A stretch of DNA of 15,574 nucleotides. It comes from a virus (taxonomy: Duplodnaviria > Heunggongvirae > Uroviricota > Caudoviricetes). Numbering within the stretch: position 1 is the stretch's first letter; the number at the start of each line of letters is the position of its first letter. The translations under genes were made by a program, and so were the position numbers. Positions 2,899-13,484 of this stretch are shown here, one piece after another. The notes under the pieces were generated by a model. The model was not told the origin of the DNA. It did not search any database and saw only the letters and a list, made by a program, of their open reading frames with translations. Location of the stretch: the IMG/VR virus record IMGVR_UViG_2802429244_000016; one strand, given 5' to 3'.

Positions 2899-3214
2899 TA
2901 TTTAACAGTTAGCCATGGAGAAGGGCAATCGCTCTTTTAACAACGAAGATGGAATCTTCTACGCAGCTGAAAAGCTGGATGCTCTTTAACAGCCTTTGGT
3001 GCTTTCCTGATGCAGGAAAGAATAGGGATACATGCACCTTTACAATGCATGTAATGATTCATCCATGAGGCTGCGGAGCGCTGACAAAGCGCAATTGCTC
3101 TTTAACATTGATGTGGGCGGGATGGTTCGTCCCGCAGTGACCGATAGATTTCTATCGGGAAACATACAATGATTCAAATATGAATCTACGGCGCTGACAA
3201 AGCGCAATTGCTCT
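2899..3214 (+). repeat. Repeat-rich int-alpA intergenic region: exact 24-bp direct repeat GCGCTGACAAAGCGCAATTGCTCT twice, plus 3-4 copies of a CTCTTTAACA-like motif
   Basis: Identical 24-mers at 3078-3101 and 3191-3214, each with an internal hairpin GCGCT-GACAA-AGCGC. CTCTTTAACA-like copies at 2931-2942, 2981-2991 and 3098-3107. Hairpin GCGGGATGGTTCGTCCCGC near 3117-3135. Confidence 0.55.
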
Positions 3215-3476
3215 CTTGCCTGCCCACCATGCCCTGAAAAAGGGCGTTCTTTAAAACTACTGGATGTCACGCCTAATAGCGTGATCCTGCCGAAATGCAG
3301 GGTAGCTCTACCCTTGTGGAGCAAACAAACCAAAACAATCTGACTATCTTTTATAAAAGACCGCAATATGTTTTTCATATTGTGGTCTTTGGCGTATTCG
3401 ACATTTGACGCAAATAAAACTCTCGCCATTCGTTGCAGGAGGGGGTTATTGCGTCATTAGTACAGGATATTAATAA

Positions 3477-3680
3477 ATGGCTAATTACAATTCATTAATT
3501 CGTCTCTCTGAAGTTCAAAGGCGAACTGGTTATAGCAAAGCATGGATTTATCGTCTTATTAGTCAGGGGAGGTTCCCTAAACAGGTAAAAATTGGAAGTC
3601 GGGCTATTGCTTTTGTTGAGTCTGAAATAGATGAATGGATTGAGAAGTGTATATTAGAATCTAGAGACGAGGTGGCCTGA
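3477..3680 (+). CDS. alpA: AlpA-family phage/satellite transcriptional regulator (excisionase-like winged-helix DNA binding)
   Basis: 67-aa protein MANYNSLIRLSEVQRRTGYSKAWIYRLISQGRFPKQVKIGSRAIAFVESEIDEWIE, the classic AlpA motif pattern; positioned just downstream of the P4-type integrase. Confidence 0.85.
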   Translation: MANYNSLIRLSEVQRRTGYSKAWIYRLISQGRFPKQVKIGSRAIAFVESEIDEWIEKCILESRDEVA

Positions 3681-4111
3681 TGGAAAAGAAAAACCGCCCA
3701 TTACAGGCGGCTAATTCAGATATTCGCGTATCTGATGTTACGCCCCTGACAAAATCCCTTCAAGCACCAAAGCGCACACCGAAAAAGCATCGTGCCAGAG
3801 TCTATATGCTGCGTACTGGTATAGAGGGATGGACAGAAAATGACATTCTTCGCTACTGCCGTCTGTCTTCTGGTCGTAACTATGCAACAGAGTTAGAACG
3901 CCAGCTTGGAATCACTCTGGAGCGTATCGACGAAAAGAATCCTGATGGTATCGGAACACACCTTCGCTACCGTTTCTCCTGCCGTGGTGATGTTCTGAAA
4001 GTGATCACTCATATTAACCATCTTGCGAACATAAATGATCACAACGGACTTTCTCAGCAGGAAATTGCCGACATTCTGAAACTCTACCCGGACGCGTTTA
4101 ACGCCGCCTAA
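3680..4111 (+). CDS. Hypothetical protein (143 aa), basic N-terminus, translationally coupled to alpA
   Basis: ATG overlaps the alpA stop (TGATG). Protein starts MEKKNRPLQAANSDIRVSDV; K/R-rich N-terminus (PKRTPKKHRAR). No family recognised. Confidence 0.6.
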   Translation: MEKKNRPLQAANSDIRVSDVTPLTKSLQAPKRTPKKHRARVYMLRTGIEGWTENDILRYCRLSSGRNYATELERQLGITLERIDEKNPDGIGTHLRYRFSCRGDVLKVITHINHLANINDHNGLSQQEIADILKLYPDAFNAA

Positions 4112-4123
4112 CGGAGACTGAAA

Positions 4124-4957
4124 ATGAACATCGAAAAAAGCAGATTAATTTCTGAGGCCGCCCCTCATCTGAACGCCTCTCTGGGCACAATTAACGGTAA
4201 TGAATTTGCCGCAATTGTCCCGGTTATTCCTGGTCATATCGGTGGGCGTGAAACCAATATTGTTAGCGCAAAAGCGTTGCACAAAGCGTTGGGCGTGGGA
4301 AAAGACTTCTCTACATGGATCACTGATCGCATCTCTGAATATGACTTCACCATTGGGCACGATTACTCAGTCCATAAAACTATTTCCCCAAATTTGGGGA
4401 AAAGCCCGAATGGCGCGGCTTACAGCAAGATTAAGCAGTCTGGCAGACCCGGCAAAGACTATCTGTTAAGTGTCGGAATGGCGAAAGAACTGGCAATGAT
4501 CGAACGCAATGATCAGGGTCGCGCTATCCGCCGTTATTTCATCCAGTGCGAGGAAGAATTACAGCGTAGCGTGCCTGAAATCGCCGCCCGCTATCGTCGC
4601 CAGCTAAAAGCCCGTATCAGTGCCGCAAACAACTTTAAGCCAATGTGCGATGCGCTGAATATGGCCCGTGCCGAGATGGGGAAAACGACGCAGCAACACC
4701 ACTACACAAACGAGAGCAATATGATTTCTCGTATCGTTCTTGGTGGGCTAACTGCTAAGCAGTGGGCGCGGATAAATGGCTATTCTGGCGAACCTCGCGA
4801 CCATATGAACGCAGAACAGCTTGAGCACCTCTCATATCTCGAAAGCACCAATATCACGTTAATTGATATGGGCATGGAATATGAGCAGCGCAAAGGAGAA
4901 CTCACCCGCCTGTCGCAACGCTGGCTCGCCAAGCGTCTGGAGGCGCTCAATGTCTAA
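4124..4957 (+). CDS. Phage antirepressor-like protein with AntA-type N-terminal domain
   Basis: 277 aa; GGAG upstream of the ATG. Segment SAKALHKALGVGKDFSTWITDRISEYDFTIGHDYSV resembles the AntA/AntB motif (W-I-x-x-R-I-x-x-Y-x-F-x-x-G-x-D-Y), recalled from memory. Confidence 0.55.
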   Translation: MNIEKSRLISEAAPHLNASLGTINGNEFAAIVPVIPGHIGGRETNIVSAKALHKALGVGKDFSTWITDRISEYDFTIGHDYSVHKTISPNLGKSPNGAAYSKIKQSGRPGKDYLLSVGMAKELAMIERNDQGRAIRRYFIQCEEELQRSVPEIAARYRRQLKARISAANNFKPMCDALNMARAEMGKTTQQHHYTNESNMISRIVLGGLTAKQWARINGYSGEPRDHMNAEQLEHLSYLESTNITLIDMGMEYEQRKGELTRLSQRWLAKRLEALNV

Positions 4958-5132
4958 GCCAACAGGAATACCACAACCTCAAAAACGCTACAAAGATGCC
5001 CACGGAGCACTCGTTACTGTCGAAAGCGTGTCTCACAACCGAGTGACGTTTTATCGCGACGGGTATCAATCGCCATGCGTACAACCGCTGGCGCGCTTCA
5101 TGAAGGAGTTCGCGGAGGTTAACAAATGCTAA
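4950..5132 (+). CDS. Small hypothetical protein (60 aa; DUF4222-like by recollection)
   Basis: ATG at 4950 preceded by GGAGG (4939-4943) and overlapping the upstream stop; MSKPTGIPQPQKRYKDAHGALVTVESVSHNRVTFYRDGYQSPCVQPLARFMKEFAEVNKC. The ORF track's 4863 start lacks an RBS. Confidence 0.55.
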   Translation: MSKPTGIPQPQKRYKDAHGALVTVESVSHNRVTFYRDGYQSPCVQPLARFMKEFAEVNKC

Positions 5133-5563
5133 CCGCCCAGAAGAAGACATTTTCACTGGCTGGCATGTCGCCAAAATCCAGCAATATGACAGCAAAGTCA
5201 GGCATTAATACAGCAGATACAAGCAAAGTTTATCATTTGCTGGTGGTAGGAGCGGATGCCTTAACTATGTCAGAAATCACGGTCGATGGTGTTAGCGTTG
5301 AGAAGGTCAGCGGCTGCGCCAGAGAATTTCTGGTCGTAGATCACCTGTTCTGCTCGTGTAGTGACTCCACAAAAACATTCGTCCACGCGCGTGACGTTAA
5401 CGAAATGAGCGCGATGTACTGTGCTTCTGGTTCTTCCAATAGTGAGTTTTCGGAGTCCATAAAAAAGAGCTTGCCGTTATGCGGCAACACGGTTTATGGT
5501 TATAAGGCACCTCATAAAACGGGTGCCGGGTTTCGCAGCCCGGAAATGTACGAGGCGACACAT

Positions 5564-5584
5564 GACGCGCCGAGCGTCTTTTTT
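5564..5584 (+). terminator. Candidate intrinsic terminator (short GC stem plus T6)
   Basis: GACGC-GCCGA-GCGTC followed by TTTTTT (5579-5584). Stem is only 5 bp, so this is weak. Confidence 0.35.
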
Positions 5585-5594
5585 TGTGCCGTTA

Positions 5595-5632
5595 GCCAGA
5601 CTCACACTTTTTTCAGTGATGTGGTTATAATC
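5595..5632 (+). promoter_or_regulatory. Candidate sigma70 promoter for the small-ORF/primase operon (perfect -10 TATAAT at 5625-5630)
   Basis: GTGATGTGGTTATAATCCGCG; no convincing -35 hexamer (CACACT-like at about 5602-5607). Lies downstream of the candidate terminator and upstream of the structured leader. Confidence 0.35.
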
Positions 5633-5639
5633 CGCGTCG

Positions 5640-5788
5640 CTTGCAAAATTATGGTGGGCTGGACAGGGCAGCCGAAAGGCTGGCCGGTTTCCTTGTACGC
5701 CGGTACTGCGAACTCTGTTCAGTCCACCACCAGCGAGTTTCGCAGCTCCGGTGGTGGGAAGAATTCCCAGTACAAGGAGGCTGCCACA
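5640..5788 (+). ncRNA. Structured 5' leader / candidate regulatory RNA upstream of the primase operon (possible P4 CI-RNA-like immunity element)
   Basis: GNRA hairpin CAGCC-GAAA-GGCTG (5668-5681); 8-bp stem CCACCACC (5723-5730) / GGTGGTGG (5749-5756) presenting loop TTTCGCAG; single-stranded CTGCGAA (5706-5712) complementary to that loop; an upstream hairpin CCGGG-TTTCGCAG-CCCGG (5526-5543) presents the same loop sequence. Confidence 0.4.
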
Positions 5789-5982
5789 TGCTGGCTACTA
5801 CCCCTACCCAAAAACCGCAATTTATCTGGATTATCGCCGCAGTTCGCCGCGATTGCCAGACAATTACCGCCAAAATTCATCATATTGCTGCCGAGTCTGA
5901 ACGCGATGCTCGCCGTTCTCTGGTGCGCGATCACGTCTGCTTTTTTGCTGGTCGTATCCGCATGGAGGTGGCACATGATTAA
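5789..5982 (+). CDS. Hypothetical small protein (64 aa), first gene of the coupled operon
   Basis: Strong RBS AGGAGG (5775-5780) 8 nt before the ATG at 5789; MLATTPTQKPQFIWIIAAVRRDCQTITAKIHHIAAESERDARRSLVRDHVCFFAGRIRMEVAHD. Confidence 0.55.
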
Positions 5983-6193
5983 AACCTACGATGTGCATAT
6001 GGATCCCCTCGAACGCACAAGCCAGATCATCACACTGACAGAGGTGATTAATGACATTCTGGTGAGCAACTCTCCCTCACGAGACGAAAAACTGAAGGCG
6101 TTACTCGCGATATTGGATCTCGCCGTTCGTGACGTTCATTTCCTGCTGGAAGGTGGACAAATGCCATGCAAAACGGGGGCAACCAATGAATAA
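5975..6193 (+). CDS. Hypothetical small protein (72 aa)
   Basis: ATG at 5975 preceded by GGAGG (5964-5968) and overlapping the upstream stop; MIKTYDVHMDPLERTSQIITLTEVINDILVS... The ORF track shows this frame open from 5126, but the upstream part lacks a start context. Confidence 0.5.
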   Translation: MIKTYDVHMDPLERTSQIITLTEVINDILVSNSPSRDEKLKALLAILDLAVRDVHFLLEGGQMPCKTGATNE

Positions 6194-6380
6194 CTCAATT
6201 AATACCCCTCGCCTTACGTCCGCACTTCAATTAATCGAGCAAGCAGCGGCTGTCCTGGTTGCTGTCAGTCTTTCGGCTGAAGAAATGGACGCTGCTGATG
6301 TCGTGGATGCGATTAAAGCGTGCTCATCTTTGGTTAACGATGCCCGTGCAGAGCTGGTAATTCTTGGTGGTGAAAAATGA
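6186..6380 (+). CDS. Hypothetical small protein (64 aa)
   Basis: ATG at 6186 overlaps the upstream stop; MNNSINTPRLTSALQLIEQAAAVLVAVSLSAEEMDAADVVDAIKACSSLVNDARAELVILGGEK. Confidence 0.5.
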   Translation: MNNSINTPRLTSALQLIEQAAAVLVAVSLSAEEMDAADVVDAIKACSSLVNDARAELVILGGEK

Positions 6381-6640
6381 ATATCAACTTAATTTATCGT
6401 CATCCGTGTGAGCTGGAAATTGAATCATTGCTGGGGCGCGAAGAGCCATATCCAGACACATTCACTCCCGCAGATTGCGCGACTGAACGGCTTACCAGAG
6501 CGCGCACAGGTCTGGTTCATGTGATGAATGAGATTATTCCCTCGGTGGGAGGGGAACAGGCGACAGTAATCAATAGCTGGCTACAAAAAGTTACCTCCCT
6601 GATAGATATCAGTTTAATCGATGTGGAGAGTGCGAAATGA
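6377..6640 (+). CDS. Hypothetical small protein (87 aa)
   Basis: ATGA start/stop overlap with the upstream gene; MNINLIYRHPCELEIESLLGREEPYPDTF... Confidence 0.55.
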   Translation: MNINLIYRHPCELEIESLLGREEPYPDTFTPADCATERLTRARTGLVHVMNEIIPSVGGEQATVINSWLQKVTSLIDISLIDVESAK

Positions 6641-6858
6641 CCAACATCCAGCTCATTGAAGCGCAATGTCGCATCGAACAGGTTCAGACTGTTTTAGGGT
6701 TCTGGCTTGAAGGGGCCAGCCCCAGCAACAGAGACAAGTTAATGATTGGCGCGGTTATGTCACTGCTCAATGGCGTACCAGAAGCTATTCAGGAAGCGGA
6801 CGAATTGTTGGGCAAATATGAGTTACAGAATCATTCAGGCGAGGCGAAACATGAATAA
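6637..6858 (+). CDS. Hypothetical small protein (73 aa)
   Basis: ATGA overlap with the upstream gene; MTNIQLIEAQCRIEQVQTVLGFWLEGASPSNRDKLMIGAVMSLLNGVPEAIQEADELLGKYELQNHSGEAKHE. Confidence 0.5.
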   Translation: MTNIQLIEAQCRIEQVQTVLGFWLEGASPSNRDKLMIGAVMSLLNGVPEAIQEADELLGKYELQNHSGEAKHE

Positions 6859-7453
6859 TTTCTTAACTTTCCATGCAGAAGCAACGCCTGACGGCGTAAA
6901 CATCATGTACCGCAGCAACGATGGCATGACAGAACGCGTTGAGGCCGTCTCATATATTGATGCCGTAAATCGTCTGGATGCCGGGGATTATGACGATAAA
7001 CCAGATGAAGGTATGTCAATACATCTCGCTATTGCCGATGGCGGCAACCAGGGATATTTCGATTACACATCACAGCATAACGTCATTATGTGGAGATGGC
7101 TGATCGCCACAGTATTCATGCTGGAAATGAGAGAGGAAAACGGCACTGTCAGCATCATTGATGATACTGGCAATCCTTCCGAAGTGGCTGTTTATTCCAA
7201 CGGCATCGTCGCCATGCCGCTGTATCCAGTAGCAGAGCGCCTCGCTATGGCAAACAACATTGAGGGCGCGATGATAGAACGTTTTGGCATCGAGTCTGGC
7301 ACAGAACGCGCCATCATTTTCTACAGAGCCATGATGGATGTGGAACAAGGAGCACTGACTCCATTTGGTCGTGAAACGCTTGCTGAACTTCACAACAGCT
7401 TTATAGCTGAACTGAATGAAAACGGCATGCCAGCGGAACCAGTGACGCACTGA
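6851..7453 (+). CDS. Hypothetical protein (200 aa)
   Basis: ATG at 6851 overlaps the upstream stop (ATGAATAA); MNNFLTFHAEATPDGVNIMYRSNDGMTERVEAVSYIDAVNRLDAGDYDDKPDEG... The ORF track's 6746 start would overlap the upstream gene in another frame without an RBS. Confidence 0.6.
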   Translation: MNNFLTFHAEATPDGVNIMYRSNDGMTERVEAVSYIDAVNRLDAGDYDDKPDEGMSIHLAIADGGNQGYFDYTSQHNVIMWRWLIATVFMLEMREENGTVSIIDDTGNPSEVAVYSNGIVAMPLYPVAERLAMANNIEGAMIERFGIESGTERAIIFYRAMMDVEQGALTPFGRETLAELHNSFIAELNENGMPAEPVTH

Positions 7454-7463
7454 GGATGGAACC

Positions 7464-7805
7464 ATGATTACTAAAAATTTCCGACTGAATGCGCTGGCAA
7501 ATAAGTATGCGTCGGCACTGTATAACCACATAACCTCCACCAGCGGCGGGGACTATTTCATGGTTGATGCGGACGGCGAAGCCGTCCGTGTGGAAATCGT
7601 CAATGGAGTAAAAGGCGTTCGCAGACTGATCGATAGCTACACACTGGCAGCCATGAAAGTGTTCTACCCGCAGTGGGAAACCGTGGGGATTGAGCTTCTT
7701 GATCGTTGCGTCACTAAGGACGGATTGACTGACGTCGGGCGTGAGATATGGCAAAGCATGGTTAAAGACATGGGCGCAACTGTAGCGGGAGGTTCTCATG
7801 CGTGA
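7464..7805 (+). CDS. Hypothetical protein (113 aa)
   Basis: RBS GAGGATGG before the ATG at 7464; MITKNFRLNALANKYASALYNHITSTSGGDYFMVDADGEAVRVEIVNG... Confidence 0.6.
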   Translation: MITKNFRLNALANKYASALYNHITSTSGGDYFMVDADGEAVRVEIVNGVKGVRRLIDSYTLAAMKVFYPQWETVGIELLDRCVTKDGLTDVGREIWQSMVKDMGATVAGGSHA

Positions 7806-8169
7806 AAATGCAGAAATGGCGCTTAGCTCCGCAATCGGAGAGCAGGTGGCAAAGATTGCTGGTGCTGTGTGGATTCATAACCTTCATTCTACTGGTGAAG
7901 AGAAAATGGCAATTCAGACGCCAGAGGGACGCACCATTACTACATCTCTGAAGCCGTCAGATATTTGTGATCTGATTTGCACATTCATGTACCCAGCAAT
8001 GAGGACTGTCCACGGCGATAAGTGGAAACTTGCGACAACCGCTGAATTTGATATGTGGCTAAACAATGATGGCATGCTGACTGATTACGGAATAACCAAG
8101 TGGCAGATGCTGGTTAGCCATATCGCAAACGCTATAGACCACGTGGGGTACGGTGATGCGAAACATTGA
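7798..8169 (+). CDS. Hypothetical protein (123 aa)
   Basis: RBS GGAGG (7788-7792) then ATG at 7798, overlapping the upstream stop; MRENAEMALSSAIGEQVAKIAGAVWIHNLHSTGEEK... Confidence 0.6.
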   Translation: MRENAEMALSSAIGEQVAKIAGAVWIHNLHSTGEEKMAIQTPEGRTITTSLKPSDICDLICTFMYPAMRTVHGDKWKLATTAEFDMWLNNDGMLTDYGITKWQMLVSHIANAIDHVGYGDAKH

Positions 8170-10912
8170 TCTTATCCGTCAGGTTATCAGTGCGTCTGAA
8201 AACAACTGGCCTCATGTGCTGGGCTGCCTGAACATAAATGTCCCTGACTCTCCGCGCCGTCATGCTCCCTGCCCTGCATGTGGGGGCAAAGATCGATTCC
8301 GGTTCGATGACAACGGGCGCGGTAGCTTCATCTGTAATCAGTGCGGCGCTGGTGATGGGCTGGATTTAATTAAACGCGTAAATAACTGCGACACAACAGA
8401 GGCGGCGCTTCTTGCCGCTGATGTTCTGGGTATTGATTACCGGACAACGGAAACACCAGAAGCCACCAGCCAGAAACGGGAACAACAGGAAACCGAGCGC
8501 CAGCGACGCGAACAGGAGCGCCTGAAAAGGGCAGAGAAGGACGAACAACAAAGACGGGATACGTTTTCCCGTCAGTTTGATGACATGCGCAGAAAGGCTG
8601 TAAACGGCAAATCTGATTATCTGGTTGCGAAAGGGGTAGGTGATTTTACATTCCCCGTGTTGCCCGATGGATCTCTGTTGCTGGCGCTGGTGGATAAATC
8701 CGGCGCAGTAACAGCAGCACAGACTATTACCTCACATGGTGAAAAAAGACTCCTGACAGGTTCAGCAAAGCGAGGGGCATATCACGCCATAAACGCACCA
8801 GAAACAACACAGAGCATCTTAATCGCAGAAGGGCTGGCAACGGCATTATCTGCCCATTTAATTCGTCCAGAGGCGCTGACAGTGGCGGCGATTGATGCCG
8901 GGAACCTGTTATATGTCGCCCAGGTACTGCGGGATAAATTTCCTTCAGCACAAATCATCATTGCTGCGGATAACGACCACAGCGAAGGAAGACAAAACAC
9001 GGGGAGAATAGCAGCAGAAAAGGCAGCTTTATCTGTTTCTGGATGGGTGGCATTACCCCCGACAGATCACAAAGCAGACTGGAATGATTACCACCAAAAA
9101 CACGGCATTAAATGCGCCACAGAAGCGTTCAATAAGTCAATGTACCAACCACAGGGTAATGGCGTGAAACAGGAGCCACAGACCATTGAGGGAAGCGATT
9201 TTAAGGTTATGGATACCGACCCACTGAAACCAAGAATAGAAAGCCGCGAGGATGGTATTTATTGGGTATCTCCGAGAGCTGACAGCCAGAGTGGAGAAAT
9301 CATCAATAACGAAAGCTGGTTATGTTCTCCGTTAAGCGTTATCGGTACTGGCAGAGACGATAAAGACCAGTATCTCATTCTTCGCTGGCTGTCGTTTGGT
9401 TCTGAAACGCCGACAACCGCTGCCATTCCACTGGCTGATATTGGTGAACGTGAAGGATGGCGCACACTTAAAGCTGGTGGGGTAAATGTCACGACCAAAA
9501 GCAGCCTCAGAGCAATACTGGCAGACTGGCTACAACGCAGTGGCTCTCGTGAATTGTGGCGTGTTGCTCATGCCACTGGCTGGCAATGCGGAGCGTACAT
9601 CATGCCTGATGGGGAAATCATCGGAACACCTGAAAATCCTGTGCTGTTCAGCGGGAGAAGCTCAGCCGCAGCCGGATATACCGTCTCAGGGAGCGCGAAA
9701 AGCTGGCGTGATAACGTGGCGCGTCTGGCCTTTGGTAACTATTCAATGATGACCGGGATCGGCGCAGCACTGGCAGCGCCATTGATTGGGCTGGTGGGCG
9801 CTGACGGGTTCGGCATTCATTTCTATGAGCAGTCGAGCGCAGGTAAGACCACCACGGCAAACGTGGCGAGCAGCTTATACGGCAACCCTGATTTACTGCG
9901 GCTGACGTGGTACGGAACCGCGCTGGGGCTGGCAAATGAAGCCGCCGCCCACAATGACGGACTAATGCCGCTTGATGAAGTTGGTCAGGGCGCTGATCCT
10001 GTCAGTGTTTCACAGTCTGCCTATGCGTTATTTAACGGTGTAGGGAAACTGCAAGGTGCTAAAGATGGTGGAAACCGGGATCTAAAACGCTGGCGTACAG
10101 TGGCAATCAGCACCGGAGAAATGGATTTAGAAACATTTATCGCTACTTCCGGGCGAAAAACCAAAGCCGGGCAACTGGTGCGACTGCTGAATATTCCGTT
10201 GAGTAAAGCAGTACGCTTTCACGATTACCAGAACGGAAAACAGCACGCAGACGCACTGAAAGACGCTTACCAGCATCACCACGGCGCAGCCGGGCGTGAG
10301 TGGATTAAATGGCTGGCAGACCACCAGCAACAGGCTATTAAAACTGTTCGTGACTGCGAAAGCAGATGGAGAAGCCTGATTCCATCCGATTATGGTGAGC
10401 AGGTTCACCGTGTAGCCGCGCGATTTGCCATTCTGGAGGCCGCATTGCTGTTAGGCGAGGTTGTAACAGGCTGGGATGCTCAGACATGCCGTGATGCGAT
10501 ACAGCACAGCTATAACGCATGGTTGCGCGAGTTCGGCACAGGTAACAAAGAACATCAGCAGATTATTGAACAAACGGAGGCATTTCTTAATGCCTATGGG
10601 CTTAGCCGTTTTGCACCATTTCCATACAGCCCGGCAGATTTGCCAATCAAAGATTTAGCCGGATACCGTCAGCGTGGAGAACATGACGAAAGCCCAATGA
10701 TTTTCTACACATTCCCGGCCACATTTGAAAAGGAGATCGCATGTGGTTTCAACGCAAAACAGTTTGCTGAAGTGTTGAAAAAAGCCGGGATGCTAACCCC
10801 ACCAAACAGCGGTCGTGGATACCAAAGAAAATCACCACGTATTCAGGGACGACAAATAAACGTTTATGTACTCAATTACCAGCCAGGAGATTACAACTCA
10901 TCTGAAGAATGA
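8153..10912 (+). CDS. Bifunctional DNA primase/helicase, P4 alpha-like (zinc-ribbon + TOPRIM primase N-terminus, P-loop NTPase C-terminus); functionally the pri-rep of a satellite
   Basis: 919 aa. Cys4 zinc ribbon CPACGGKDRFRFDDNGRGSFICNQCG; TOPRIM-like IAEGLATALS and IIIAADNDHSEGRQNTG; Walker A FYEQSSAGKTT. Start is GTG 8153 or ATG 8156, overlapping the upstream gene. Confidence 0.9.
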   Translation: MMRNIDLIRQVISASENNWPHVLGCLNINVPDSPRRHAPCPACGGKDRFRFDDNGRGSFICNQCGAGDGLDLIKRVNNCDTTEAALLAADVLGIDYRTTETPEATSQKREQQETERQRREQERLKRAEKDEQQRRDTFSRQFDDMRRKAVNGKSDYLVAKGVGDFTFPVLPDGSLLLALVDKSGAVTAAQTITSHGEKRLLTGSAKRGAYHAINAPETTQSILIAEGLATALSAHLIRPEALTVAAIDAGNLLYVAQVLRDKFPSAQIIIAADNDHSEGRQNTGRIAAEKAALSVSGWVALPPTDHKADWNDYHQKHGIKCATEAFNKSMYQPQGNGVKQEPQTIEGSDFKVMDTDPLKPRIESREDGIYWVSPRADSQSGEIINNESWLCSPLSVIGTGRDDKDQYLILRWLSFGSETPTTAAIPLADIGEREGWRTLKAGGVNVTTKSSLRAILADWLQRSGSRELWRVAHATGWQCGAYIMPDGEIIGTPENPVLFSGRSSAAAGYTVSGSAKSWRDNVARLAFGNYSMMTGIGAALAAPLIGLVGADGFGIHFYEQSSAGKTTTANVASSLYGNPDLLRLTWYGTALGLANEAAAHNDGLMPLDEVGQGADPVSVSQSAYALFNGVGKLQGAKDGGNRDLKRWRTVAISTGEMDLETFIATSGRKTKAGQLVRLLNIPLSKAVRFHDYQNGKQHADALKDAYQHHHGAAGREWIKWLADHQQQAIKTVRDCESRWRSLIPSDYGEQVHRVAARFAILEAALLLGEVVTGWDAQTCRDAIQHSYNAWLREFGTGNKEHQQIIEQTEAFLNAYGLSRFAPFPYSPADLPIKDLAGYRQRGEHDESPMIFYTFPATFEKEIACGFNAKQFAEVLKKAGMLTPPNSGRGYQRKSPRIQGRQINVYVLNYQPGDYNSSEE

Positions 10913-10938
10913 GCTTCTTCATGTGCGTAGAAAAGGTG

Positions 10939-11048
10939 TTGGTTCAGTTGGTTCAGTTGGCTCAATTTGTAAAGAGTATTGTTTTATAAGGATTTTATTC
11001 TTTTTGTTGAACCAACACTGAACCAACAACACGGTATTTTGAACCAAC
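10939..11048 (+). repeat. Iteron cluster A (ori-like): 3 tandem GTTGGTTCA, AT-rich spacer, 3 inverted TGAACCAAC
   Basis: GTTGGTTCA at 10939-10947 and 10948-10956, GTTGGCTCA at 10957-10965; AT-rich spacer; TGAACCAAC at 11008-11016, 11019-11027 and 11040-11048. Immediately 3' of the primase gene. Confidence 0.7.
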
Positions 11049-11098
11049 ACAATGTGACTGAATTGATGCGCACAACACCTGGCTGGCATCAGAGAGTG

Positions 11099-11174
11099 TT
11101 TTACGAGACTTTCGTAAAATCCTGTGTACAAGGGCGTGGCGTTTTTGAAGGATAAACCTACGAAATTTTCGTAG
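11099..11174 (+). promoter_or_regulatory. Two dyad-symmetric operator-like sites with shared core TACGA-N5-TCGTA
   Basis: TTTTACGA-GACTT-TCGTAAAA (11099-11119) and the perfect 17-bp palindrome CTACGAAATTTTCGTAG (11158-11174), centres about 57 bp apart. Confidence 0.5.
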
Positions 11175-11370
11175 TTCAAAAAATAGTCTCTGAGATGTTG
11201 TTATGCCTGTTCAGCAAACCATCTGCGTAGCTGATCGCGAATCAAATTACCAATGGAGCCAGAAGCAAGGGCAGAACTGGAAATCGCCTGCCGTGTAGAG
11301 TAATGCGACACCATAAATATAGTTTTCAGAGTCCATAGAAACCTGTCAAAACCTGACATACAGAACGATG

Positions 11371-11399
11371 CCACCAGATACTGAATGGTGGAATTTTTG
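11371..11399 (+). terminator. Weak candidate intrinsic terminator
   Basis: CCACCA-GATACTGAA-TGGTGG followed by AATTTTTGT; 6-bp stem, so marginal. Confidence 0.25.
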
Positions 11400-11493
11400 T
11401 GCTATTTGTTTCATATTTTGCAATAACAATGATGAGTGATGCGATTTATGAAACTATAATAACTGTTGTTTTATACAGATCTAAGGGGGCGTT

Positions 11494-11673
11494 ATGGCTA
11501 TTTCAGTAAAGCCAGTATTGATAAGTGAGAAGCAAATGGAAGCGATAAAGAAAATTCAGGAAGAGCAGCGTAAAAAATCAGAGGTAGGAGTTGCGCCAAC
11601 GATCCATGAAATTGCTCGGGGATTAATGGATAAGGCGCTGACAATACACGCAAAAATGAAGGTGTCTGCATGA
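11494..11673 (+). CDS. Small hypothetical protein (59 aa), translationally coupled to the 604-aa gene
   Basis: Not in the supplied ORF track (below its length cut-off). RBS AAGGGGG (11482-11488) then ATG at 11494; TATAAT at 11455-11460 upstream; stop TGA overlaps the next ATG (ATGA). MAISVKPVLISEKQMEAIKKIQEEQRKKSEVGVAPTIHEIARGLMDKALTIHAKMKVSA. Confidence 0.5.
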   Translation: MAISVKPVLISEKQMEAIKKIQEEQRKKSEVGVAPTIHEIARGLMDKALTIHAKMKVSA

Positions 11674-13484
11674 TTATCAATGAGTTGGCCTACAAGGTCA
11701 CAATTAAGGCCGATGAATTCCTGAATGGAAAACGGAAAGTAAAAGATGAAGTTAGTAAATTAAACAAAGATCTTTCCAGGGCTGAGAAGGAAAGGTTAAA
11801 GGAACTTGAAAAACAACGGCAGGAAATGGAGAAGTTCAGTAAAAACGCTGTTTCAGCTTTCCGCAACGTGACAACAGCAGCCGCTGGATTTTTGGGAATC
11901 GGCGCTGGGTTGTATGGAATCAAGCAACTTTTTACATCTACCGTCAACGAAATCGTGAGAGCCAGTCAACAGGCCAAGTTTTTCGGTTCTGATGTTAATA
12001 AGATGTTTGGTGTTCAGCGGGGATTTCGTCAGGCTGGTCTTAACGGTGACTCGTTCATTTCATCTTCTGGGAATGCCAGAATGGCTTTGGCAAATATTGC
12101 CGATCCAACTGTTATGGGAGGGCTTACTGGCGCTGCCCAAAATTTGCTGGTTCTTGGCGCTCGCACCGGATTAGATATCAATAAGCTCGGTGACCCAAAC
12201 AAGGCTCTTGCTGAGTTTTCTCGCTATGGCAAGACTCATTCTCAAGAAAACCTGATGCAGGTGATGGCTGCCGCAGGGTTCGATCCGACAGATGCCGCTA
12301 AAATAAAATCAGGGGAACTTAAGCAGCTTGTCGATTCAGAAACAAAGAAATCCCGTATTACCGCACAGCAGGTAAAAGAGCAGGAGAAGGTTGCCGCCAC
12401 TCTTGGTCAACTTGATTCAGAGTTTTCCCGATTAAAGCAAAATTTAGCCATGGCATTTGCTCCTGACGTTATTGACGGAATGAAGGCTTTTGGTTCCTGG
12501 ATTGAGAAACATCATGGCGACATCATTGGCTTTTTCAATGACGCCGGAAATATGACGAAGCAATTCACAAAGGCAGTTGGTGGTGCGGAAGAGGCTCTGA
12601 AACTATTGGCAGCAGCATATGTAGGAAGCAAACTTACAGGCGGCGCCCTTCCTCCATGGTTGGCTGGGTTAATAGCATATGGTTTGTATCTCTACAATGA
12701 CAGGGAAAACATTGAGGGTGCAGCTAAAGGATCGTTTGATTACTCTAAGCGTGAACTTGGAGATACCATGCGCAGCATGGGGTTTGACACCGATTTTGGG
12801 CGTAGGGGAGATGAGATTTATGGCAATAACATTCAGCCAGATATCCCTCTCCCTGACGGAGTAAAGCCAGTAAGCATGGATTCTCTCCTTGACGCCATTC
12901 GTGAGGTGGAATCGAGTGGTGGTAAAAAACTTTATAGCCCGAAAGGTGCTGTTGGTCCGTATCAGTTCATGAAGGATACTGCCATAGCGTACGGGTTAAA
13001 GGTCGGGGATGGGATTGATGAGCGCCTTGATGAGGTGAAATCTCGCGCTGCTGCTGAAAGGTTCATGAGGGATTTGCTAAAGCACTATAAAGGCAATGTT
13101 AACCATGCGCTGATGGCTTACAACTGGGGGATGGGCAATGTAGATAAAAAGTTAAAATACATATCCAGTACCGGGTTTGATTCACCATCATCCAAATACT
13201 GGAACACCTTACCGAAAGAGACGCGAGAATATGTGCCAAAGATTCGCGCAGCTCTTAATGCAAAAGAAAACGAGACGCTGGCTTACTATCAGCAGCAGCA
13301 ACGCATCGCCTCAACACCAAGCCAGACAACATCAAAAATTGACAACAGCCGTAGCAGCAGTACAACTATTGGCACGGTTGTTGTTAACAGTAACCCGACA
13401 ACAGTTGATGCTCTTACCAGAAGTGTCAATCAGCAAGTTAGCCGGGTGTCAACAAACGCGGCATTTTCTAGTGCCGTTAAGTAG
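11670..13484 (+). CDS. Coiled-coil, membrane-associated protein with C-terminal lytic transglycosylase (SLT/lysozyme-like) domain and Q/S/T-rich tail; tape-measure or injection-protein-like architecture
   Basis: 604 aa. N-terminal K/E-rich coiled coil (about aa 20-60); hydrophobic segments AAAGFLGIGAGLYGI and ALPPWLAGLIAYGLYLY; SLT signature about aa 404-490 (nt about 12879-13140): DAIREVESSGG, GAVGPYQFM, ALMAYNWGMGN. Tail YYQQQQRIASTPSQTTSKIDNSRSSSTT. Confidence 0.8.
   Translation: MIINELAYKVTIKADEFLNGKRKVKDEVSKLNKDLSRAEKERLKELEKQRQEMEKFSKNAVSAFRNVTTAAAGFLGIGAGLYGIKQLFTSTVNEIVRASQQAKFFGSDVNKMFGVQRGFRQAGLNGDSFISSSGNARMALANIADPTVMGGLTGAAQNLLVLGARTGLDINKLGDPNKALAEFSRYGKTHSQENLMQVMAAAGFDPTDAAKIKSGELKQLVDSETKKSRITAQQVKEQEKVAATLGQLDSEFSRLKQNLAMAFAPDVIDGMKAFGSWIEKHHGDIIGFFNDAGNMTKQFTKAVGGAEEALKLLAAAYVGSKLTGGALPPWLAGLIAYGLYLYNDRENIEGAAKGSFDYSKRELGDTMRSMGFDTDFGRRGDEIYGNNIQPDIPLPDGVKPVSMDSLLDAIREVESSGGKKLYSPKGAVGPYQFMKDTAIAYGLKVGDGIDERLDEVKSRAAAERFMRDLLKHYKGNVNHALMAYNWGMGNVDKKLKYISSTGFDSPSSKYWNTLPKETREYVPKIRAALNAKENETLAYYQQQQRIASTPSQTTSKIDNSRSSSTTIGTVVVNSNPTTVDALTRSVNQQVSRVSTNAAFSSAVK

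Follow-up and report, generated by a model that had tools for sequence, protein, structure and literature searches.

We analysed a 15,574-nucleotide window of virus DNA (IMG/VR record IMGVR_UViG_2802429244_000016, Caudoviricetes), which is a phage satellite of the EcCIMP1 type, a phage-inducible chromosomal island (PICI) located at tRNA-Thr beside proA. Our subject is a plus-strand reading frame of 355 codons (positions 5126 to 6193) that runs without a stop codon through the immunity region of the island. This frame is probably the counterpart of the eta gene of phage P4: translation arriving from the upstream alpA operon would carry expression through the immunity region, and the openness of the frame, not the peptide it encodes, would be the selected property. 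This reading is carried by directly observed properties of the locus, namely its anatomy, its matches to RNA families, its homology to eta and kil, the covariation of RNA and target sequences and the conservation of the open frame. The arrangement is already known for P4 and has been noted for PICIs; the island departs from it in two respects, the offset of the frame relative to the icd gene and an in-frame pac fragment.

The open frame and its ends

According to the open reading frame (ORF) listing and the translation, the frame starts with ATG and holds no internal stop, compared with 14 and 19 stops in the other two plus-strand frames of the same stretch. The base composition gives a stop probability of 0.047 per codon and a probability of 3.9e-8 for 355 codons without a stop; such runs are expected 2.8e-5 times in the six frames of a random sequence of 15.6 kb. 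When the window was shuffled 200 times, the maximum stop-free run was 278 codons (mean 156). These estimates, together with the conservation among relatives described below, rule out a chance open frame. An original prediction, made from the sequence alone, had already claimed that the frame is open over this extent and unlikely to be so by chance, and both claims hold.

The same prediction had seen no start supported by a ribosome-binding site. Such a start does exist: the sequence contains a plus-strand Shine-Dalgarno motif, GGAGG (5115-5119), six bases upstream of the ATG at 5126-5128, and it is kept in relatives. This ATG overlaps the stop codon (TAA, 5130-5132) of the preceding gene in the motif ATGCTAA (5126-5132), which suggests translational coupling between the two. 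The preceding gene (4950-5132, plus strand) encodes a DUF4222 protein (PF13973, 87.6 bits), is annotated by the Prokaryotic Genome Annotation Pipeline (PGAP) in relatives and is the last gene of the upstream alpA-antA operon.

The 3' end of the frame is a gene of 72 codons in the same phase (5975-6193, plus strand), annotated by PGAP as a coding sequence in strain NCTC9040. It has its own Shine-Dalgarno sequence (GGAGG, 5964-5968), its ATG overlaps the icd stop (ATGATTAA), and its stop overlaps the ATG of the next gene at 6186 (ATGAATAA, 6186-6193). Of 17 changes among relatives, 10 affect the third codon position, and synonymous and non-synonymous changes stand at 9:8 in this frame, compared with 1:16 and 3:14 in the other two. 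The ribosome-binding site and this bias, which is found in this frame only, establish that the final 219 bp are a real gene, as first proposed; it is also called on its own on more than 1000 contigs.

Across this junction lies an icd/kil-like gene of 64 amino acids plus stop (5788-5982, plus strand; NCBIfam NF033153, 70.6 bits; also annotated by PGAP), whose product is 44% identical to P4 Kil (E 7e-12). Its positions modulo 3 equal 1 and those of the long frame equal 2, and its ATG lies 662 nt from that of the long frame; the two are thus read in different frames. An overlapping gene in another frame had been correctly predicted here, with its start misplaced to 5789: the ATG is at 5788 and NF033153 matches 5788-5982. 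Judged from the two translations, P4 has one base more between Shine-Dalgarno sequence and ATG.

The exact 355-residue protein is present in NCBI as the 'ash family protein' WP_105279715.1, which belongs to a cluster of 484 sequences; most listed members of this cluster are 355 residues long. PGAP treats the frame inconsistently, as a full coding sequence or as a pseudogene for near-identical loci. We considered whether the labels 'pseudo, incomplete' in strains H7, M10 and MP1 indicate stops in homologues and rejected this, since the frame is intact there when read directly and the labels reflect annotation choices. A cysteine- and serine-rich composition had also been proposed. Over 5132-5641, serine is indeed frequent (14%), and cysteine, at 3.5%, is not notable.

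RNA genes beneath the frame

Where the original prediction described a region with no convincing gene, it overlooked two RNA genes, both on the plus strand and both matched by Rfam families. The first is an IsrK/SeqA-like leader RNA (5507-5584; RF01394, 69 bits against a gathering score of 50), in which the family RF03163 (c4-a1b1) additionally scores 22.5 bits, under its own gathering score. The leader contains target copies a1 (TTCGCAG, 5532-5538) and b1 (TGTACGAGG, 5547-5555) and, as found by a terminator scan, an intrinsic terminator with a stem at 5564-5578 and a T-run at 5579-5585. This is the sole convincing plus-strand terminator in the co-directional string of genes from alpA to the primase gene. 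The second RNA gene encodes the C4/CI antisense (immunity) RNA (5647-5734; RF01695, 81.1 bits against a gathering score of 45, model positions 1-87 of 87).

Downstream of C4 lie two further plus-strand targets, a2 (TTCGCAG, 5739-5745) and b2 (GTACAAGGAGGCTG, 5770-5783), recognized by complementarity and covariation. The C4 hairpin loop b' (CGGTTTCCTTGTAC, 5685-5698) forms a contiguous duplex of 14 bp with b2 and pairs over 9 bases with the copy inside IsrK, and the single-stranded 3' segment a' (CTGCGAA, 5706-5712) is complementary to TTCGCAG at both a1 and a2. The target b2 spans the icd Shine-Dalgarno sequence (AAGGAGG, 5774-5780), and icd/kil is the first regulated gene of the C4 system here.

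Alignment to P4 points to an internal promoter for these RNAs, a counterpart of P4 PLE, on the plus strand: TTGCCG (5471-5476), an 18-nt spacer and TATGGT (5495-5500), with a predicted start near 5507. In an alignment of the window, P4 and type IV rows, this sequence is matched with P4 TTGCCT-17-TATAGT, just upstream of the P4 IsrK/SeqA match. It is invariant across all relatives; a scan for consensus promoters scored it 8/12, under the threshold. In addition, a perfect TATAAT (5626-5631, plus strand) that has no good -35 element stands 16 nt upstream of C4 and may be a second promoter for it. It is conserved in immunity types I-III (see below) and lost through the 38-bp deletion of type IV. 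As such, it would be comparable to the paired promoters of P1.

The P4 eta gene and the meaning of 'Ash family'

The nested eta and kil genes of P4 are said to have been described by Forti et al. in 1999 (J Bacteriol 181:5225). One link between them and the island frame is the family PF10554 (Phage_ASH), which matches ORF residues 124-232 with 99.9 bits against a cut-off of 26 (profile positions 1-106 of 107). This span corresponds to nucleotides 5495-5821, that is to IsrK, C4 and the downstream targets and to nothing else. In P4, PF10554 matches a legacy frame annotated in 1990 as 'cI gene product (AA 1-137)', and epsilon, the true derepression protein of P4, matches another family, PF25738. 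Rfam places C4 at 8507-8420 of P4, within the old cI frame, and IsrK at 8692-8615, just upstream. A single P4 frame, open from the consecutive ATGs 8767/8764/8761 (197-199 codons) to 8168, holds both RNAs, and its last 65 codons start at an ATG and constitute the Icd-like Kil. This frame with kil is the eta/kil pair and matches the description given by Mageeney et al. (PMC10111431). By BLASTP, ORF residues 116-220 align with Eta residues 14-133 (E 1e-13), and the aligned parts end exactly at the kil/icd ribosome-binding site.

In their account of this work (PMC10111431), transcripts of a constitutive promoter within eta soon terminate and are processed into CI. Translation of full-length Eta takes place only on transcripts from a late promoter upstream, and Eta translation blocks termination; C4 and IsrK matches in such genes of several PICIs are mentioned as well. 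The island frame shares with P4 eta a beginning upstream of the internal promoter, start/stop coupling to the upstream gene, a single frame that spans SeqA/IsrK leader, CI/C4 RNA and downstream target alike, and a short translatable gene as its 3' end. It differs in the nature of that end, because the ORF passes through icd in another phase and joins the gene that follows, of 72 codons. It is also longer (355 compared with 197-199 codons), since some 380 nt, including a fragment with the pac sequence of a helper phage, lie between the upstream gene and the promoter. Further, the coupled upstream gene is the DUF4222 gene, three genes after alpA, whereas in P4 it is the alpA homologue itself. 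Of three guesses in the original prediction, a programmed read-through arrangement came nearest to this picture, with the reservation that translation of the frame is deduced from P4.

Two side observations concern the annotation of these families. PHROG 6928, named 'transcriptional repressor', and PF10554, the 'Ash protein family', both stand for the P4 frame annotated in 1990 as 'cI protein', which is now read as CI RNA and eta (P4 coordinates used for the comparison: 8168-8584 and 7888-8175). One satellite survey took PF10554 as the profile for P4 epsilon; the family matches the cI/eta frame instead.

Immunity types and conservation of the frame

To follow the frame among relatives, we used 20 related loci, none of which was picked on the state of the downstream frame, plus MP1 (21 loci in total). 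Within otherwise near-identical islands, these loci fall into four immunity types (5507-5787 compared; loci L002, L005 and L009). The flanks are 90-100% identical between types, and IsrK, the spacer, C4 and the targets are 50-84% identical. Changes are concerted in each type, affecting loop and tail of C4 along with both target pairs, those in IsrK and at the icd ribosome-binding site. Tail and target occur as CTGCGAA/TTCGCAG, ACGCCAA/TTGGCGT and GTCCTAA/TTAGGAC, and the loop occurs as CCTTGTAC, CCATTCGA, CCTTCAGA and CCTTGATTG, each with matching targets. This co-variation of loop, tail and target in four types, as read from the sequences, argues that the RNA switch is live and sets specificity.

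Throughout these changes, with the RNA part at 59-84% identity, the frame remains open. It is uninterrupted from its ATG to at least the icd stop in 21/21 loci and in all four immunity types, and in type IV a 1-bp and a 38-bp deletion sum to 39, so that the frame is kept. The layout of the window is found in 18 of the 21 loci, one of them being shorter by 13 codons; the remaining three end differently, through a frameshift within icd (1-bp deletion or 10-bp duplication) or another downstream segment. The original prediction had named stops in homologous elements as the mark of a chance frame, and none was found in the 21 sampled loci. The protein database does contain truncated and frameshifted variants, so an open frame is the common state and not a universal one.

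As an observation on icd/kil itself, the homologue is frameshifted in two of the 21 loci (L005, which is NCTC9040, and L018), once by the 1-bp deletion, which fuses it with the next gene, and once by the 10-bp duplication. Such frameshifts would fit the loss of a toxic gene.

The encoded sequence behaves differently from the frame. Over 5507-5787, there is no codon-position bias among relatives: changes at codon positions 1, 2 and 3 number 12, 10 and 7 in IsrK and 19, 16 and 19 in C4. Residues from about 136 to 222 are rewritten non-conservatively between types, for example from WTGQPKGWP to AQAGASSEAP. This behaviour agrees with the P4 eta model, which predicts a frame that must be translatable and, over the RNA part, is free to vary in its product. 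The earlier claim that most of the frame is no conventional gene holds. A protein of unusual composition, which had been offered as one explanation, is not supported, as the encoded sequence changes almost freely between types.

A wider and unbiased sample was obtained by scanning IMG/VR with a pattern made of conserved C4 bases only, which yielded 89-90 distinct loci (pairwise C4 identity 64% in the median). In 89 C4 loci, the 'Ash' frame holds 0.76 stops per 276 nt, the second frame 1.84 and the third 3.88, with 3.52 expected from composition. Stops in the 'Ash' frame are thus about 4.6x rarer than the composition expectation and 2.4x rarer than in the next-best frame. Over the whole stretch that reaches from IsrK to a2/b2, the 'Ash' frame is open in 65/90 loci, the second frame in 16/90 and the third in 2/90, and the stops in the latter two frames are scattered and do not sit at fixed positions. 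In other C4 loci, an upstream ORF stops beside an in-frame start in 37 of 53 cases, an uncontrolled count that we do not enlist as evidence.

These numbers bear on the explanation that competes best with an eta counterpart, namely that the frame has no function and is a by-product of conserved G+C-rich RNA, a real 3' gene and chance, noticed via gene callers and the 'Ash' profile. That PF10554 coincides with the RNA genes, and that the protein annotation of this region in P4 has since been re-read as CI RNA and eta, would be expected under it, and so would the missing codon-position bias, the existence of truncated variants and the flips of PGAP between full coding sequence and pseudogene. However, no conserved stop positions explain the difference between the frames in the 89 diverse loci, and the frame survives the replacement of about 40% of the nucleotides between types as well as the compensating deletion pair. 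The parts outside the RNA genes (5126-5506 and 5788-5974, about 190 codons) are likewise stop-free, and stops present in the phage pac region are missing from every satellite copy, as detailed below. We consider a functionless frame unlikely.

The pac fragment

Within the part of the frame that precedes the promoter, a fragment of a P22-type small-terminase gene (gene 3, nt 268-374) lies on the minus strand, antisense to the long frame. It spans 107 bp (5274-5380), is 91% identical to P22 gene 3 over 102 bp (E 4e-32) and is annotated by PGAP in NCTC9040 as a partial 'DNA-packaging protein'. The suggestion of a decayed or fused gene is borne out in a narrow sense only, by this captured antisense piece.

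The fragment includes a pac-like 22-mer (GAATGTTTTTGTGGAGTCACTA, 5359-5380, minus strand), which matches P22 pac (GAAGATTTATCTGAAGTCGTTA, gene 3 nt 268-289 according to the feature in AF527608) at 15/22 positions; in relatives, 16-17/22 positions match P22. Compared with the pseudo-pac pattern of PMC10996546, 15-16/17 positions fit. The 85 bp flanking pac on one side are 91% identical to P22. Homology between island and phage starts within a few bases of pac and runs to gene 3 nt 374, with unrelated sequence beyond both ends; P22 places its initiation cuts within roughly 120 bp around pac (PMC10996546). Four variant positions of the island 22-mer are held in common with the E. coli Lederbergvirus IME10. 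Downstream of pac, polymorphisms among island copies mirror the allele differences between P22 and IME10 gene 3 and fall on wobble positions of gene 3, which points to repeated exchange of the fragment with phages.

Read in the antisense frame used by the long ORF, the P22-type sequence has a TAA inside pac and that of IME10 a TGA next to pac; neither stop is present in any island copy. A tentative account, to which we give slightly less than even credence, is that the demand for translatability would require inserted DNA to be stop-free, and that the island took a 107-bp slice with pac and used or evolved a pac variant without an antisense stop.

The fragment is a possible packaging signal of EcCIMP1-type islands. 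EcCIMP1 was shown to be induced and transferred by the helper phage Kapi1 (PMC11773190); the authors of that paper describe transfer by Kapi1 as extremely low, carriers with Kapi1-like prophages as few, and the packaging mechanism as hard to characterise and left unresolved. The small terminase of Kapi1 is of the Sf6 type (PF20901), unrelated to gp3 (PF16677), and a comparison of Kapi1 with the window gave no DNA similarity. If the pac site works, it would be the missing packaging signal of these islands, and one would expect the efficient helpers among Lederbergviruses whose small terminase is of the gp3 type (P22- or IME10-like) and not in Kapi1. Our literature searches returned no report of a P22-type pac fragment in PICIs, which is not proof of novelty.

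Weighing the explanations

Taken together with P4, the anatomy of the locus suggests the following course of events. In the uninduced state, the internal promoter (about 5471-5500) would yield the IsrK/SeqA leader, mostly ending at the terminator (5564-5585), and the C4/CI RNA. C4 would pair with the a and b targets, including the icd ribosome-binding site, and silence icd together with the replication genes further downstream. RNA started at the internal promoter would be untranslated until icd and exposed to terminator and C4. Upon induction, transcription would come from the upstream alpA-antA-DUF4222 operon, and ribosomes would move from the DUF4222 gene into the long frame via ATGCTAA, translating through terminator, C4 and targets. 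This translation would keep the hairpin, antisense pairing and Rho from acting, so that expression would reach the replication genes, and because the frame ends on the ATG of the next gene, coupling could continue toward the primase. The property under selection would be the absence of stop codons and not the amino-acid sequence.

Several points weigh against this explanation. We infer both the translation of the frame and its prevention of termination by analogy with P4. There, kil is the in-frame 3' end of eta, whereas icd/kil here is out of frame. The four immunity types amount to three or four independent samples within the family, and the expected stop frequency considers composition only, so that G+C-rich conserved RNA sequence could explain part of the stop depletion. 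Finally, the protein database contains variants truncated at 152-210 codons, some in clusters with tens of members, and either the intact frame is not obligatory or the truncated copies are decaying. Most truncations go back to a shortened T-run (5579-5585) in the IsrK terminator, T5 or T6 where the window has T7, and the resulting frameshift ends the frame at 155-167 codons; such copies may be phase-like natural variants, decaying or products of faulty assembly.

A second alternative is a protein whose sequence matters, a real 'Ash' protein or a regulator of the Bro network such as an antirepressor acting on the helper. The good ribosome-binding site and the start/stop overlap at 5126 speak for a translated product, an AntA/B antirepressor gene lies nearby, and the EcCIMP1 paper describes the 'Ash family protein' as strongly conserved among related islands (PMC11773190). 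The first 148 nt of the roughly 380 extra bases may be under some peptide constraint, because over 5133-5273 an excess of 16/29 changes among relatives falls at the third codon position (13 synonymous, 16 non-synonymous in total). However, the N-terminal 127 residues, searched against 5.8 billion proteins, retrieved only close relatives from Escherichia and Salmonella and no distant family; they have no Pfam or PHROG match, and a scan of genome contigs gave one locus only. Within the whole frame, 36 residues are an antisense reading of the terminase gene, those from about 136 to 222 are rewritten between types, and 62 are an alternative frame of icd, and an intrinsic terminator lies inside the frame. 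A sequence-dependent protein is thus quite improbable. That the frame is the remnant of an ancestral gene, decayed or fused and drifting toward loss, can scarcely be credited: the foreign gene fragment and the frameshifts seen in variants and in icd might recall one, but drift would bring stops, the frame is kept in the 21 loci and in the 484-member cluster, and the fragment is antisense, only 107 bp long and ends exactly at pac.

The island and its neighbourhood

The gene order in the window is proA, tRNA-Thr, a tyrosine integrase gene, alpA, an unassigned gene, the AntA/B antirepressor gene, the DUF4222 gene and the long frame, followed by several small genes, a DUF927/Toprim primase-helicase gene and a gene for an SLT-domain protein. 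EcCIMP1 of E. coli MP1 is 98% identical to the window over 3234-11643 (8.4 kb) and shares with it the integration site at proA/tRNA-Thr, the gene order, the 355-codon 'Ash family protein' frame and immunity type I; the window diverges past about 11643, in the late or accessory region. In its searched passages, the EcCIMP1 paper treats the frame as a protein and does not mention the RNAs or the pac site (PMC11773190). DNA similar to 5126-5506 was found at nearly full length in 484/5426 complete E. coli genomes, and islands of this type are thus present in about 9% of them.

Two further genes were noted. The SLT-domain protein (11670-13484) has 604 residues, and in a close relative PGAP labels it 'phage DNA ejection protein', a kind of protein typical of P22-like podoviruses. 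A frame of 129 codons (3040-3429) on the minus strand, situated between the integrase gene and alpA, is listed by PGAP as hypothetical in strain M10 and had no match in a Pfam search.

Significance and relation to known systems

The assignment affects how existing annotations are understood: thousands of entries named "ash family protein", "transcriptional repressor" or Phage_ASH would mark an RNA immunity switch under an eta-like frame, and this bears on satellite detection where PF10554 is used as an epsilon profile, as in the survey above. If the eta reading is right, the locus would be a clean case from nature in which the openness of a frame is selected and the peptide is not, and this is testable in EcCIMP1/MP1. 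The embedded pac-like fragment likewise offers a concrete and testable answer to the question of island packaging and helper phages, which the EcCIMP1 paper left open (PMC11773190).

Beyond P4 eta, there are further close parallels. As in the immI operon of P1/P7, the C4 RNA is processed from the transcript that it regulates, two target copies lie upstream and two downstream with a downstream copy over the icd ribosome-binding site, and immunity types differ by co-varying loop and target sequences, the pattern of heteroimmunity. The two systems differ in their surroundings, the antirepressor gene (ant) being downstream in P1/P7, whereas the island has small ORFs and the primase-helicase gene at this position and its AntA/B gene upstream. 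The isrK-orf45-anrP region of Gifsy-1 in Salmonella (PMC4825925) likewise has an IsrK leader RNA with its own terminator and read-through transcripts on which a small ORF is translationally coupled to the next gene, and its authors regard IsrK as a structural homologue of P4 SeqA. There, IsrK is described as a trans activator of its own read-through mRNA, and no long overlapping frame is discussed (PMC4825925). With respect to packaging, the pac fragment resembles the short copies of helper recognition sequences in other satellites, such as cos in EcCICFT073-type PICIs and pac or cos in Staphylococcus aureus pathogenicity islands (SaPIs). In contrast to those, the copy described here comes from the interior of a P22-type small-terminase gene, measures 107 bp and is placed antisense and in frame within a putatively translated leader frame.

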